64,000 bases of DNA from Candidatus Danuiimicrobium aquiferis (GTDB lineage: Bacteria; Omnitrophota; Omnitrophia; Omnitrophales; Danuiimicrobiaceae). Each line of letters starts with the position of its first letter. Position 1 is the stretch's first letter. The position numbers and the translations under genes were made by a program. The DNA lies in contig MHFR01000037.1 of assembly GCA_001804285.1 (NCBI GenBank), forward strand, positions 85,952 to 149,951, given 5' to 3'. Below, in pieces: positions 51,881 through 60,800 of this stretch. Under the pieces are notes generated by a model, which was given only the letters and a program-made list of their open reading frames with translations, ran no database searches and was not told the DNA's origin.

Positions 51881-54800
51881 TTACGCCGAAATCGATACCG
51901 CAATACTGGCTTTTACACGATCCCAGAGTTGCGCGAAAGCATCACTTTGACGCCCCGTTAAGCCCCGATAACCACCCAGGTTCGGTGTAAATTCTTCTCT
52001 GTCGTCAGGCTGCTTGAGCAGAGCATCGAAACCGGCATTCATGCCGACCCGGCCCGCCCACGATAAATTATAGCCAGCGAGGCGCTTGCCCGGAGCCATG
52101 AATGATTGCAGGATTGAAACCAATCTTTGGCTAATCCGGTCCACCAAGCTTTTCCCATTTACCACTTGCTCTAAAATAGTTTGCGGCAAAACAACAGTTG
52201 TATGTTGTTCCAAGAAAGCTTCCGTTTTCCCGGTGGCGGCATACCGTCCGGCTGCCTGACGTGCTTCCTCATCGCCTTGAATCAACTTCATAATCAATTT
52301 TGGCGTAATAGGGCCATCAACAACTGTAACATGACCAATTCCTTTAGTGGCTTCGGATAACATCTTCAGCAAAGCCGCCTTCGCAGGACTTAAGTCGTCA
52401 TTGATAATTACCACTTTATGCCATACATTTTGTTGCTGAAACACAGCCGCATTCGCAATCATCCACAAAATGCCATCCTCATCGAGCATGGAGCTGGACG
52501 TAATCTCCCTGCTGAATTTTAAATCCGAAGATGTCGCAACCGGAAATAAAACATTCCGTTCCGCTTCTGAAAGTTGATTAACGACAGCCAAAATCTCCCG
52601 GATTCTGTCTTCAGCACCTTTCACCCCAAGCACGGGCGAAATTAAGTTTTCCGTCACGGCAGATGTAAACATTTCACCCAGCTGATCAAGGCCTACCTGA
52701 TAAACCGGATTTCCGTTTGTCGTAATAGTCGGAACAGTTTCGGCAAGCGCAACACCGGAACCGGGCCATGTCACATTAAGTTCAAACGGAATTTTTAATT
52801 GCCGTCCATTCACTTTCAATAATCGCCCGAGCAATGCCGGGATTTTCGCCACAGTCGCTAAAATGCCGGCTAATTTTGGAAATTCCCCTTCCGGCGTGAT
52901 TAATACATTCTTGATAATATTTTCATCCACGGTAATTCCCGTCACAGGCACGTTAGCTTGATGAAGTTCCCCAACAACGCGTTCGACTTCCGCCACCTCA
53001 GCTTCGCGCACACCTTGATCCAGTTTTTCGATAACCGATCGGAATCTGTCTACATTTCCAAGCAACCGCGCTTCAGAACGCACAAAACGCTCACCGGGGC
53101 GTCGAAGAGTCGGCACACCGGTCGTTGGCTTCGGCACATCAAAAACAGCGGTCGATCTGGCGGGTATATTTTTCCCGCGAACGCCTCTCGCGCGCGCTAT
53201 TTCTGCAGACGTCGGCTGTATCTTTTCGTTGATACTCGCCTGAGCAACAGCAGCTTGCCGCACTTCAGATCGTCTGGGAATAAGGCTGGCTTCAACAGAA
53301 TCCCCGTACGCACCTACTTTAAGCCTGAAATAAACCGGCCGTCCTTTTGCCAAAGCGTCATCGATCCTAATCCCTCCCGCAACATTATCGTCTCCCTCAG
53401 AAATCGTGGGCTGAATATAAACATCGAACGCATGTTGGACAGGAGTCCCATCCTCATAGGCCACCACAATGCCCGTGACTCCCGTATTCGCACGGAGATC
53501 GTAACGTGCATTGTCGTATGCCTGATAATCTGCGCGATTTCTATTTTGCTGCTCTAAATAGTACGCGGTGGGATTCCGGATAATCTCCGGGAAAATATTC
53601 TGCCCGGGATTATAAGGCGAGAACGAGGTAACGCCTCCTTCCCCAACCGCTATAATTTTATCGATATCATGAGCACTCGCATTGGGTTCAGATTTCCAAA
53701 ACATCGAACTGAAACCACCGATTCTAATTTCACCGGGCGCAACATCACGGCGCGGAATCAACACCCCGCGCGTAATTTCCATTTCGGACGGAAAACCAAA
53801 ACGGAACGTCACTTCGGCTACCCCCTCAAACGCCTCTCCGTTAAACGTGATCACAGCGCGAATTCCCTCTTCCTGGTTTTCAAAATAGGTATTTGAAAGA
53901 TAAATTTCGCGGATTTGGGGAAATCTCGTTTTCTCAAGATCTGTTCCCGTATTCTGCAGAAAATACCGGAACGATGAACTATAACTCAGCATTTTCTTTA
54001 TTCCGTCGACCACAGCGGTCGGTGCCAAGCGTAAATATCCTGTTGCACTTAGCGTGAAGCCTTCTGCATAAGGCTCCTGGTCAGTCGGCAAATCTAATAC
54101 TGTTCCCAGATTCAGCCGGCTCCAACCATAATTGTCCGGTGACCACACTTCCGGCAAAGCCGGGCGGATCTCAGGAGAACCCCAATCAAGCAAACCCGGT
54201 GAAAAAGCAAGCTCATTCCATTGATCATCCGTAAAACGATTGTAAAACTGAAACGAAATGTGATCATGCACAACACGCGGCCGGGTCATCGCTTTAACTT
54301 TATTACCTTTAAAAGCCGGCGCTAACACGCGAACGGCATTCCCCTCATGAAAATCAAGACCGCGAGTTTCGCGATCAGACGTTGCATAATAATCCGGTTG
54401 ATCTATCACTAAGAATGGGTCGTAAGCACTGCCCGCACGCACACGCGATCGTTCAACCAGATCATTAAACGTCTGGTCCCAGGGAATTCTCGCTGTAGGT
54501 GACACCAAATCAACACCGGGAAACAACGGAAACTCCATGGGAAGCGGAATGTTCGTGCAAGCACCAACAGCGGCCGCAGATGCTCCCGTGAGAAACAACC
54601 GCCGATCAAATGCGCGATATCCGAAAATTGTAGACGCTGAGCGTCCCCATCGTTCAAATGGTGAAAGAGCTTCAGGGCCTTCAACTTTTGCTCGTACTTC
54701 CGCTCTGACAGTCTGAACATTGGCCGACGGAATAGCACCCGGAAAAATCGCCTGCACCATTTGACCATTTAAGCCACGTTGTTTGATGTCAAGTTTTGCC

Positions 54801-57800: not shown

Positions 57801-60800
57801 ACGATTCCCGTAATCGCAGCAACATTCGCCCCCCTGCTTAATGCAAAAGAATCGCCCGTTCCCGCCACAAAATTAATAAGACTCGCTTGTCCGGGGTTGA
57901 GTTGCGCATTATTAACCAATGTCACGGTTGTATCGGTTGCATCCACAACAAGATCATTGCCCGCTCCATATCGGCGCACTTGAATATTTTTCGCCTGGAA
58001 ACCTTGCGGCGTACCGCCAGTCACCAAATTAATCACATCTAACGAACGAGGAACCTCCGGAATTGCTGCTCCGCTTTTATCAACGCTAAACCTGCCAGTT
58101 GTACCAGCCTGTATCGTCAGTTTCGTTCCGTCTGCAAGCGTTGCCGTCGTACCGCCTTCAATTTCAAGGGAAATCGACGCCACTTGATCCAGAATGGCCG
58201 TATCGATACCCGAATCTTCCAACGCCTTCACCAACTGTGCCAGCGTCAAATCTCCCTGGCCTACCATAATAATTTGATTTCCACCGACGGCGACGAATTG
58301 CCGTTGTAAATTCGCATCATATTTATATCCCTGCAAGGTCACTCTCAAAAACGAAATGGCCGCATCATGTTGCACATTAGAAAAAATAATGAAATTTCGT
58401 TGTTGTTCCGGCGTCAACAAAGGGCCGCCCGGCGTTTGCCTCAGCAGCGAGAATGTAACCGTTTGTCCGTTCGAGCCCGCCGGACCTTGCAAAGTAATTG
58501 CGCTCGGACTATTTGCACCAAGATTGGTCACAGACACTCCGAACCTGGCGCCCAAGTCTTCCCTCGTTCCGCTGCCCGATTGTTTGATTTCAACTTTTTC
58601 CAGACTGTAATCTTTTACGGTTCCGCCGGTCACATCCGCAAGGGTAATACTCTGCGATGCCGCTTGCGGCGCAATCGGGTTTTCAATCGACTGCACGACA
58701 ATCCCGGAGGTATTTTTCACGCTTCCCTTTTTGAATTCCACGGAAGCTTTGGTAATATCCACGTTCAAAAACACGCCGCGAAGTTGATCGATATCGATTC
58801 GCAACCACTGTCCGGATGTCAAACCCGTCAGTTGGATGATACCGGTCGGCTGTCCGGCGGCGGTAAGCCTAATTTCCAGCTCCGTGTCCGCAATTTCTAC
58901 GTCAAAAATCGAACCATTGATGTTTGTTTTTCCTTGCCCCGGAAGTAAAACATGTCCCCAAGTACCCGTGTCAGAAAGATTTTCGTCGCGAGCAATTTCT
59001 CCTTGATTGGTTGCGATAAACCTTACTCCGATGGACGGATTATTGCCAAACGGAGAATAAACGTTTAAACCTCCGGCCGTCGTAGCCACATTCGGTTGCG
59101 CTGTCGGCTGAAGCGGCGTTTGCAAAGTCAACAAAACTTCATCGGCCCGGACACCTGCCGTTGGCATTCCGATTCTCGCGTTGGTCGTGCCTGCGGACAA
59201 ATCTGTTTTTGCAATTTTCATTTCAAATTTCTTGACCGCGGCCAAAAGTTCATCCATTGAGGCATATCGAACGCCGATTAACGTCGCCAGCTCGTCGGTA
59301 AAGTCATAAAAGCCAACTCCGTCGTTACGCAAGTCGAGATTCGGGAAAACCGCAATTTGACTATCATTCGGTCCCCAAAAAGTAAGCGTGCCAAAATCGG
59401 CATTTGATTCAAAGCCGACAACAACACGATTGCTCGAGTTAAGTTTGAAACCTTGGGGCTGGTCCACTTGAATAATAAAAGAAACCAAGCTATTCGGATT
59501 GCTCCCCAAATTTTGTGTGGTTTGATAAACCGGCATATTCGGGTACGTCGTATTGAGCGACAGACGAGGCTCCGCATTGGCAACATTTGTATATATAGAA
59601 GCTTTACCTGAAGCCAAACTGCTGTCTCCGATTCCCAATCCTGAAACCGGCAGGATTCCGGGGCCTGGTTCCTCTCCCGGCGGAAGCGTCGGCGTAACAC
59701 CCGGCTGGTCAGTCGTCACAGGCGGAAGAATGTCCTGATCCGTAGAAGGAAGTCCAAAACCACCGCAACCAGGAAGTGCCGCGAACAGTCCTCCAATACC
59801 AACAACTACCAATCCCACTGTCAGAACCGAAACCGTTGCAAGCGCCCCTTTGGTTTCCCATGTCTCTCTAAACCCGGCCACCCAAGCTCCCCACCGCTCT
59901 TTAACGGCTTCGCGCACTGCTTTCTCCGCTCTTTGCTCTGCCGCCTCTTCTGCATAGGCAGCTTTGAAATCTGCCTCCGTCGGTTCCTCAACCAACGAAG
60001 GAAACTGAGCATACAACGCAACCGCATTCGATTCTCTTCCGACTCCTACAAGTTTCATCGCACCCTGAATTTCCCGAGCATCCGCCTCAGCTATTTCTTC
60101 CAATTCTTGCCACTTTTGCAAACCGGGCCGACTCCCTGCCGGAACTTGACTGCCGGGAAGTGCTTTCGCAAATACAGCTTTCCTCGTTGTCACACCGAGC
60201 GTTGCCCTTGCAAACGGCCCCTGGTTGACCTCACGTGAAGCTAACAACTCTTGAATCGAGGCATTGAAGGCAAGAACAGGAACATTCATGCCATCAATTC
60301 TCCGGATCACGGGTTCACCGACGGCATCGTACCGGCCGTCTGATTTTTCCATCAACTTTTTATATTCCGAAACCAACTGAGCCTGCATTTTTGCAAGCAG
60401 CGCATCCGTCCATTCAAATGTCTTTTTGGGATGCGCAAGTTGCCATTGCCGAATGAATTTCTGGACGGCACGTTCAACCTTTATCATATAAATAAATTTT
60501 GCGGCAGCAGACTCGCGGACTGAATCCTGTCTGTCCCGAAGAATCCGGTCGGCGAGTTCACTAACCGCTTCTTCTTGTCTCGCGCCGGTCCATGCATCGA
60601 TCAATCTCTGTAAAAATGATCGCTTTGCTGCTTCAGCCTTCGGTTCCGCGCTCACTTGAGTCGCGGGACTTGCCATATTAGATTCGAATCCGTCTTCTTG
60701 AAAAATTGCCCGCAAAACAATCTGCCCCTTGTTTCTGTTGATCCCCTTGGCCTTAGCGGGCTTGATATCCTCGGACAACGCAAGCGCTGCCTCCCGGCGG

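Follow-up and report, generated by a model that had tools for sequence, protein, structure and literature searches.

The described systems closest to the locus considered here are the giant membrane proteins of the Omnitrophota (Seymour 2023, PMC10066038; bioRxiv 10.1101/2023.11.21.568195; bioRxiv 10.64898/2026.06.07.730766), which are encoded by clustered long open reading frames (ORFs) and combine an N-terminal signal and membrane helices with mostly unannotatable sequence, a glycan-active domain and nearby type II/IV secretion genes. In one of these reports (bioRxiv 10.1101/2023.11.21.568195), the West-Roberts class is described as exceeding 30,000 aa and as containing numerous membrane helices and a divergent SecA DEAD domain, proteolytic dicing of the giants is proposed, and the lack of known cleavage points is said to block structural and functional analysis. 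One recent pipeline for cataloguing Omnitrophota giant proteins discards internal signal-peptide calls as artefacts. Here we analyze a 64,000-nucleotide stretch of DNA (the window; contig MHFR01000037.1) from an uncultured groundwater member of the same phylum, recorded under the names Candidatus Danuiimicrobium aquiferis and Omnitrophica bacterium RIFCSPLOWO2_12_FULL_44_17. Its giant ORF A is the middle one of three adjoining very long ORFs, with an ORF of 12,008 aa upstream and one of 5,523 aa (ORF B) downstream.

51881..62968, minus strand: giant ORF A, 3,695 aa, OGW79609.1, one unbroken frame

ORF A shares with the described giants the clustering of long ORFs, the signal and helices, the mostly unannotatable sequence, the glycan-active domain and the nearby secretion genes. 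Unlike the West-Roberts class, however, it is only 3,695 aa long, has two strong helices, and contains no detected SecA, C39 or S8 domains. It thus belongs to the same giant-ORF phenomenon, by virtue of the 12,008/5,523-aa cluster and the type II secretion system and type IV pilus genes, but not to the West-Roberts class. Our analysis indicates that ORF A is a real mosaic gene that arose by in-frame fusion of formerly independent genes, of which at least two, and probably three, appear from their sequences to have encoded exported proteins with signals that survive intact. Its product may be a polyprotein.

Internal export signals have been described in dual Sec/Tat proteins (general secretory and twin-arginine translocation pathways; the Rieske protein Sco2149, Sco3746 and polyferredoxins; PMC3471235, PMC5449189), which also contain an internal twin arginine (RR) followed by a weakly hydrophobic helix. 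Prolipoprotein signals placed inside a longer chain reportedly still undergo modification and processing (Hayashi, Chang, Chang, Giam and Wu 1985, J Biol Chem 260:5753, PMID 2985611). Beyond these engineered constructs, our literature search returned no bacterial precedent for internal lipobox or polyprotein lipoproteins. The signal in these artificial constructs was reportedly of Sec type and preceded by only a short N-terminal extension, whereas the arrangement in ORF A is natural and its Tat-type signals lie behind thousands of residues. In the polyproteins of flaviviruses, pestiviruses and hepaciviruses, internal signals set the topology, host signal peptidase cuts, and a dedicated protease cleaves at a short cytoplasmic motif. 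The likeness to ORF A consists in the single ORF, the internal signal sequences and a short recurring motif; the viral systems differ in operating at the eukaryotic endoplasmic reticulum with signal peptidase I and alternating membrane helices. We know of no bacterial chromosomal counterpart of viral polyproteins with lipoprotein signals, and internal Tat signals are, to our knowledge, known only in dual Sec/Tat membrane proteins.

Within the single open frame of ORF A lie three signal-like segments, at the places given by the initial annotation (exactly for 59759-59845, within a few nucleotides for the others).

59759..59845, minus strand: segment 1, ALATVSVLTVGLVVVGIGGLFAALPGCGG, aa 1042-1070, a 26-residue uncharged hydrophobic helix followed by LPGC
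56033..56104, minus strand: segment 2, KKVTRRAFIAGAAAGVVAIYGCGT, aa 2289-2312, with T-R-R-A-F-I, a 15-residue hydrophobic region (h-region) and the lipobox A-I-Y-G-C
54551..54610, minus strand: segment 3, FDRRLFLTGASAAAVGACTN, aa 2787-2806, with D-R-R-L-F-L, a 13-residue h-region and the lipobox A-V-G-A-C

The lipobox was defined by the core of PROSITE PS51257, [LIVMFWSTAG](2)-[LIVMFYSTAGCQ]-[AGS]-C after at least six uncharged residues, and by a second pattern, G+LPP. Segments 2 (AAAGVVAIYGC) and 3 (TGASAAAVGAC) match the PS51257 core, and segment 3 also matches G+LPP. Both fit the Tat consensus [ST]-R-R-x-F-L-K by pattern, as T-R-R-A-F-I-A and D-R-R-L-F-L-T, respectively. Their N-terminal flanks carry net charges of +4 and +3, which, with h-regions of 15 and 13 residues, agrees with a positive N-terminal region (n-region) preceding ~7-22 uncharged residues, and both C-terminal flanks are net -1. 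The maximal Kyte-Doolittle averages over 19 residues are 2.34 for segment 1, 1.54 for segment 2 and 1.38 for segment 3, and the crude additive sums on the Hessa scale are +0.1, +3.1 and +5.2; segments 2 and 3 thus display the weak h-region hydrophobicity that distinguishes Tat from Sec signals. Because of the RR, the short h-regions, the lipoboxes and the Hessa sums, these two segments are of the signal type rather than the membrane-span type; they are signal-peptide-like, and too short and polar for ordinary membrane spans. The count of three lipoprotein signals in the initial annotation has to be reduced accordingly, as segment 1, which fails as a lipobox, is better read as a membrane-strength helix followed by a Cys: it is preceded by RETWETKG, its flank charge is 0, and its h-region of 26 residues lies outside the ~7-22 range of lipoproteins.

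The segments also share features of their surroundings. Behind each Cys comes a low-complexity tether rich in Pro (in Pro and Thr after segment 1), and [WF]GRS stands exactly 15 residues ahead of the RR at both Tat-like junctions (FGRS at segment 2, WGRS at segment 3), with ERWG at a similar spacing, ~15 residues, upstream of segment 1. The canonical position of a lipoprotein Cys is at residues ~15-35; in ORF A the corresponding residues are 1068, 2310 and 2804. Because the Cys lie deep inside the chain and no usable start precedes segment 3, the segments are signal-like rather than canonical signal peptides. Neither TatA nor TatC is encoded within the 64-kb window.

The Cys residues of the segments stand out against the rest of the chain. 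ORF A contains only four Cys (559, 1068, 2310 and 2804), three of which are the segment-terminal ones, and in none of 20,000 sequence shuffles did three or more Cys fall in a lipobox-competent context. The Cys content is 0.11% in ORF A and 0.06-0.16% over the giant ORFs (0.16% in ORF B), compared with 1.15% in 24 ordinary ORFs of the window, an approximately ten-fold depletion (window 35134-62968 and L005:3-10001, L005 being a separately analyzed locus that contains part of the 12,008-aa ORF). As Cys has been purged nearly everywhere save at the three positions after the segments, we infer that the segment Cys are under selection and functional.

The fusion origin of ORF A is most directly seen at the module that follows segment 3.

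53273..54550, minus strand: module M4, aa 2807-3232, a divergent MdoG/OpgG/OpgD (glycoside hydrolase family GH186) catalytic domain

An exhaustive HMMER search with aa 2140-3320 against 1.8 billion representative proteins returned homologues only for aa ~2818-3222. All nine M4 homologues (phmmer E values of 4e-12 to 7e-4) match Pfam MdoG PF04349, with E values of 3e-15 to 3e-32. M4 alone is too divergent for a direct PF04349 match and has no Pfam match even at E<=10, but a profile led by M4 finds OpgG (1txk) with an E value of 4e-23 and OpgD with 1e-21. The AlphaFold2 (AF2) model of M4 (predicted local distance difference test score, pLDDT, 68.8; predicted template modeling score, pTM, 0.76; first 23 residues disordered) adopts the fold of the N-terminal catalytic beta-sandwich and matches 1txk (E 1.5e-17) and 8x18 (E 7.8e-17) with TM scores of 0.63-0.67. 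The invariant columns, in M4 numbering H296-D297-x-D299, Y352-x-x-R355 and E387-x-x-D390-N391, align with the HDSD, YxKR and ExxD(N) of OpgD, in which the catalytic residues of the E. coli enzyme (EcOpgD) are the general acid D388, E385, D300, Y356 and R359 (PMC10514313). The C-terminal Ig-like domain of OpgG/OpgD is missing from M4 (the profile spans chain residues 33-364 of 498), and the closest homologues end at the same point, likewise without it.

Standalone homologues of M4, of 411, 417 and 386 aa, begin with a signal peptide at the position that aligns with segment 3, which directly supports a fusion origin for M4. At the other end, the C termini of the homologue P0002 and the multidomain homologue P0009 lie ~10 residues ahead of an RSEVR at 3233, one copy of a recurring motif described below. 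Signal, mature domain and natural C terminus thus appear, from these alignments, as a complete secreted-protein gene embedded in the frame. The fusion of secreted-protein genes with retained signals that had been proposed for ORF A is thereby borne out for M4; by analogy, it is plausible that the module after segment 2 (M3) also derives from a fused secreted-protein gene. The G+C content at third codon positions (GC3) is 0.45-0.53 throughout the modules of ORF A, and because of this uniformity and the lack of internal Cys in M4 the fusion is not recent. A recent foreign origin of the modules was ruled out by the same uniform GC3, and M3 was ruled out as a diverged duplicate of M4, as hmmsearch with the M4 profile scores it with an E value of only 0.9.

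M4 compares closely with the OpgD/MdoD Tat precursor (GH186; Motouchi 2023, PMC10514313), having the same fold, the same catalytic motifs and a preceding RR, h-region and lipobox arranged like those of an ordinary Tat precursor, and the E. coli protein is stated to be Tat-dependent (Lequette 2004, as cited in PMC10514313). In contrast to OpgD, the M4 signal lies 2,786 residues from the N terminus, and M4 lacks the C-terminal domain. That M4 came from a fusion would also be expected if the signals were nonfunctional fossils, tolerated as linkers or as peripheral membrane contacts in one chain; the Tat profile scores discussed below are under threshold, and the searches found no orthologues. However, two full RR/h-region/lipobox units and three Cys persist in a Cys-purged protein whose composition is homogenised across modules. 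Moreover, an OpgG/OpgD-type enzyme with its catalytic motifs belongs to a periplasmic family that has no known cytoplasmic substrate, and segment 1, being hydrophobic, would enter the membrane even if left unprocessed. We therefore consider it unlikely that the signals are only relics.

The long frame itself appears sound. Metagenome-assembled genomes (MAGs) contain errors in general, and mis-assembly, or the loss of stop codons in a decaying pseudogene, could in principle have joined four neighbouring genes. The 15-kb locus DNA, however, is identical in all four compared assemblies, and the identical protein occurs on 13 contigs and has three separate accessions among MAG proteins. Because the four locus copies are identical in DNA, a mis-assembly of ORF A is excluded, and this check disposes of the artefact that the initial annotation had named as a possible refutation. 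In addition, a stop-free frame of 11 kb is not attainable by chance, and the same motif grammar is common to two adjacent giant ORFs, so that the probability of an artefact of either kind is close to negligible. The recovered copies, all identical in DNA, show no population variation on which a polymorphism-based test of selection could be built.

Another way in which the modules might reach the membrane is as nested genes, with translation also, or instead, from internal in-frame starts that yield ordinary lipoprotein precursors. The initial annotation had reported no in-frame start with a Shine-Dalgarno (SD) sequence directly before the segments. This holds for segment 3, where the 36 codons between an RAEVR (2755) and the RR contain no ATG, GTG or TTG and the sole start-type codon, TTG 2791, falls after the RR. 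It does not hold for segment 1, which is preceded by GTG 1030 behind GGGGAG (duplex of -7.7 kcal/mol, which ranks it within about the top 4% of the 282 candidates in frame); a start there would give MAGFRETWETKG, then the h-region and LPGC. Yet stronger SD-start pairs occur at irrelevant sites inside domains, such that 1030 is not exceptional, and segment 2 has only weak GTG/TTG candidates upstream, with poor SD pairing of -1.5 to -5.7 kcal/mol. Since no start codon precedes the RR of segment 3, separate translation is not a general explanation, and we regard nested genes as very improbable. The true start of ORF A itself is probably M18, judging from its ATG (62915-62917) behind GAGGGGAG, with a pairing energy of -8.3 kcal/mol; it yields a classical MKSFRSR... 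signal. The annotated ATG at 62968 likewise has an SD, GGGGGA.

A feature that is absent from the initial annotation is the motif R[AS]E[AV]R, which occurs in 18 copies over the three adjacent giant ORFs. Counted as R[AS]E[AVLIM]R, it is present in seven copies in ORF A (0.04 expected), six in ORF B, one of them RSELR (0.09 expected), and five in the last 3,332 aa of the 12,008-aa ORF, compared with no copy in the ordinary proteins (24 ORFs, 10,130 aa). The copies sit in linkers right after domain ends, often following L/I-P. In ORF A they are as follows.

61268..61282, minus strand: copy 1, RSEAR, aa 563-567, with C559 four residues upstream
61196..61210, minus strand: copy 2, RAEVR, aa 587-591, followed by a weakly hydrophobic uncharged stretch of 18 residues
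56489..56503, minus strand: copy 3, RSEAR, aa 2156-2160, directly past the end of module M2
56255..56269, minus strand: copy 4, RAEAR, aa 2234-2238, 55 residues upstream of the segment 2 RR
54692..54706, minus strand: copy 5, RAEVR, aa 2755-2759, 30 residues upstream of the segment 3 RR
53258..53272, minus strand: copy 6, RSEVR, aa 3233-3237, ~10 residues past the natural C terminus of the OpgG-like domain
53066..53080, minus strand: copy 7, RSEAR, aa 3297-3301

The codons for Arg, Ser and Ala differ among copies, which rules out a DNA or RNA element; because the codons vary, the constraint on the motif acts at the protein level. By a rough estimate, the chance that seven random sites would give both the 55- and the 30-residue proximities to an RR is roughly 0.01. 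Our literature search found no match to the motif strings beyond substring noise, and a term search of the Omnitrophota giant-protein papers turned up no mention of internal Tat-lipobox signals, R[AS]E[AV]R or Cys depletion. Separately, a longer linker cassette, RSEVR-N-[IL]-x-x-x-MGTGS-x(4-5)-PEPVP[VI]L, was observed three times in two of the giant ORFs, at aa 793-830 and 3563-3600 of ORF B (~49216-49329 and 40906-41019) and at aa 3060-3110 of the L005 part of the 12,008-aa ORF; the cassette regions of ORF B and of the C-terminal part of the 12,008-aa ORF are 36% identical (blastp).

The motif copies, together with the segments, delimit the remaining parts of ORF A.

62825..62917, minus strand: N-terminal Sec-type signal or anchor, MKSFRSRIVAFATAIFFISSTVLSAAPVAFV, aa 18-48
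61283..62824, minus strand: head domain D1, aa 49-562, paralogous to the ORF B head, with invariant HxQDAH and LVTGGFH
59846..61195, minus strand: domain D2, aa 592-1041, 27.6% charged (K, R, E, D)
56504..59758, minus strand: module M2, aa 1071-2155, 16% charged and 37% N/T/S/G/Q
54707..56032, minus strand: module M3, aa 2313-2754, an orphan
51884..53065, minus strand: C-terminal domain, aa 3302-3695, without a hydrophobic export segment

The N-terminal signal has an uncharged h-region of 22 residues, a Kyte-Doolittle maximum over 19 residues of 2.07 and a Hessa-scale sum of +0.2. Four of the motif-bounded units bear one hydrophobic export-type segment apiece: 1-562 (N-terminal signal and head), 592-2155 (D2, segment 1 and M2), 2239-2754 (n-region, segment 2 and M3) and 2760-3232 (n-region, segment 3 and M4). 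The remaining pieces, which are without such a segment, are two short spacers, a 73-residue mini-domain and the C-terminal domain. Once the motif is counted, ORF A therefore divides into about eight units and not the four modules initially described. The composition of M2 is of extracytoplasmic type, and composition or family likewise suggests an extracytoplasmic location for M3 and M4.

Collectively, these features suggest a route by which the product of ORF A might be processed, whose proteolytic, export and lipidation steps we infer from the sequence features, the statistical excess and restriction of the motif, and the fusion origin of M4. In the first step, the linkers would be cut at or near R[AS]E[AV]R. 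The released precursors 2239-2754 and 2760-3232 would then start with an n-region of 30-55 residues, followed by the RR, the short h-region and the lipobox Cys. In the third step, these precursors would be exported in folded form via Tat; Lgt would acylate them on the Cys (C2310 and C2804), where signal peptidase II (LspA) would trim them. The end products would be membrane-tethered lipoproteins, one of them an OpgD-like beta-1,2-glucanase. Unit 592-2155 would be a membrane protein with D2 in the cytoplasm, segment 1 as signal anchor and M2 outside, and segment 1 may perhaps also be cleaved at C1068, releasing M2. The charge asymmetry at the signal segments, positive in the N-terminal flank and negative in the C-terminal flank, corresponds to an N-in/C-out orientation. 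Each signal needs a cytoplasmic N-terminal side; therefore, signal peptidase II would not suffice alone, and the chain would have to be cut further upstream as well, or the signals be recognized while still tethered. Because the next RR ends up on the wrong side after one crossing, M2, M3 and M4 could not all reach the outside unless each unit were exported on its own.

That ORF A yields a polyprotein cut near the motifs, with modules exported and lipidated separately, is the reading we tentatively prefer, while placing it somewhat below an even chance. That the Omnitrophota giant ORFs are, as a group, polyproteins with a punctuation code, in which R[AS]E[AV]R marks the cuts of a dedicated protease and some pieces bear their own Tat-lipoprotein signals, is a more doubtful extension. 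Several observations weigh against processing. A hydrophobic segment follows only five of the 18 motif copies, and the motif may be a structural linker feature rather than a cleavage site. No protease for the motif cuts was identified, and if the N-terminal signals of ORFs A and B export the heads, the motif would be present in both compartments that the membrane separates, a distribution hard to reconcile with one protease confined to either of them. With Pro at -2, segment 1 (..AALPGC) matches neither PS51257 nor G+LPP. The term "textbook Tat" in the initial annotation is justified by the consensus pattern but not by profile: segment 2 scores 13.0 bits on the Tat-signal hidden Markov model (HMM) TIGR01409, below the cut-off of 16.7, and reaches an E value of 0.036 on PF10399, whereas segment 3 has no match to the Tat-signal HMMs. 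Finally, scans of genome collections with ORFs A and B and a metagenome scan with ORF A yielded a fragment of the same contig but no orthologue or close relative.

The most detailed alternative, which we judge somewhat unlikely, is a single uncleaved polytopic chain whose assembly involves both Sec and Tat. Sec would insert the N-terminal signal and segment 1, with D1-D2 periplasmic and M2 forming a long cytoplasmic loop. Segment 2 would act as a tethered internal Tat signal that carries the folded C-terminal ~1,385 aa, with optional use of the C2310 lipobox, and segment 3 would be a relic within the passenger. Internal Tat signals after an even number of Sec helices have been demonstrated experimentally in the actinobacterial Rieske protein and other families (PMC5449189). 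Consistent with this arrangement, exactly two strong helices, an even number, precede the RR of segment 2, which is itself weakly hydrophobic, and in ORF B the same head is followed by a cluster of membrane helices. Segment 3, however, is preceded by three hydrophobic segments; its RR would be on the wrong side and without a role, and yet the RR, h-region, lipobox and Cys are all kept. The uncleaved chain would also leave M2 in the cytoplasm, despite its surface-like composition and Pro/Thr tether. Unlike the dual-targeted proteins, ORF A has two tandem signals, the second of which is topologically incompatible with the known mechanism, and a lipobox Cys closes each of them; the "loop" ahead of segment 2 would span ~1,200 residues. 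A cargo of ~150 kDa would be very large for Tat. The C-terminal flank of segment 2 also lacks positive charges of the kind that bring about release from Sec in the dual-targeted families (PMC5449189), and no cofactor-binding domain is evident, M3 and M4 having no Cys and no cofactor-family match.

Outside M4, the modules of ORF A remain without relatives in the databases searched. Neither the whole protein nor eight sub-fragments gave anything credible against Pfam and NCBIfam at E<=10; M3 has no homologues among the 1.8 billion representative proteins, none were found for D2, M2 and the C-terminal domain, and D1, M2, M3 and the C-terminal domain have no matches among PDB sequences. Word-indexed searches with aa 2140-2900, aa 1-620 and the M4 profile gave 0, 0 and 1 matches, but did not recover the query itself and are therefore weak negatives. 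D1 has no match in Pfam, NCBIfam, a PDB sequence search or with a two-sequence profile, and its single-sequence AF2 model (pLDDT 37) is unusable. Its HxQDAH and GGFH motifs may resemble the GxxH motifs of TraB/Tiki/ChaN-type (putative protease) domains, a likeness not used here as evidence.

The signal and head are common to ORF A (aa 18-562, 61283-62917) and ORF B (aa 16-702, 49600-51660), with a blastp E value of 1e-14 and the invariant motifs I-x-H-x-QDAH...AQxNIxKIL, E-G and LVTGGFHxxGI.

35134..51705, minus strand: giant ORF B, 5,523 aa, with the same head, six motif copies and a membrane-helix cluster, then enzyme domains
63176..64000, minus strand: C-terminal end of the upstream 12,008-aa ORF, whose last 3,332 aa, taken from locus L005, contain the five motif copies and 0.06% Cys

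Past its membrane-helix cluster, ORF B contains NUDIX, pyruvate-phosphate-dikinase (PPDK) N-terminal and mobile, DUF218 and inositol-monophosphatase domains. These domains are normally cytoplasmic, with R[AS]E[AV]R copies between some of them, and the arrangement resembles an operon fused into one frame. Downstream of the giant ORFs lie the housekeeping genes nusA, infB, truB, ribF, pnp, dut and ftsK, together with type II/IV secretion genes. The latter, at 8165-18353 of the window, roughly 17-27 kb past the end of ORF B (35134) and beyond the housekeeping genes, encode two GspE-type ATPases, GspF, a standalone MshEN-domain protein, a prepilin-type protein and a sigma-54 two-component pair, and agree with the reported co-occurrence of type II/IV secretion loci and giant genes in the Omnitrophota.

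The short intergenic gaps between the giant ORFs are occupied by an element resembling repetitive extragenic palindromes (REP-like), with the core GTCATTCCCGC...GCGGGAATCC, at 62982-63176 and, in further copies, at 51752-51807, 34913-34981, 2142-2256, 8731-8759, 10244-10270 and 11870-11967. A called gene of 64 aa (62982-63176) is, from its translation (..VIPACFKRGS..WIPAFAGMT..), probably this element and not a real gene. The palindromic element is also present in frame within the head of ORF B, at 50841-50869 (aa 276-291) and 49981-50193 (aa 505-575), where its translations VIPAQAGIHGS and SFPHVFSGNP appear as insertions when the head is compared with its paralogue in ORF A. Mobile repeats can thus enter the giant ORF without disrupting its frame. 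Within the 12,008-aa ORF, the assemblies L005 and L006 have six single-base differences within 30 bases (positions 6878-6907) and are otherwise identical across 20 kb; these positions form a short patch that is either hypervariable or mis-called.

All of the evidence is from a single clonal organism, the kinds of element involved are already known, and the polyprotein mechanism is a proposal, such that ORF A does not represent something categorically new. It addresses, however, the open question of whether the products of Omnitrophota giant genes act as single chains or are cleaved. ORF A is small enough for experiments. Processing is predicted at its seven R[AS]E[AV]R sites and at two or three lipobox Cys, and its predicted fragments are defined, one of them containing a recognisable GH186-type glucanase domain. 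If the proposed processing is correct, one ORF would give rise to several separately exported, lipid-anchored enzymes, a cellular, chromosomal analogue of viral polyprotein expression, and bacteria would possess a polyprotein strategy. Tat and lipoprotein signals would then be usable from deep within a precursor, these being the first natural lipoprotein signal peptides working from the inside, and annotation pipelines that discard internal signal-peptide calls would need to change. If it is refuted, ORF A would still be a clean, dated example of gene fusion in which complete export signals have been preserved.

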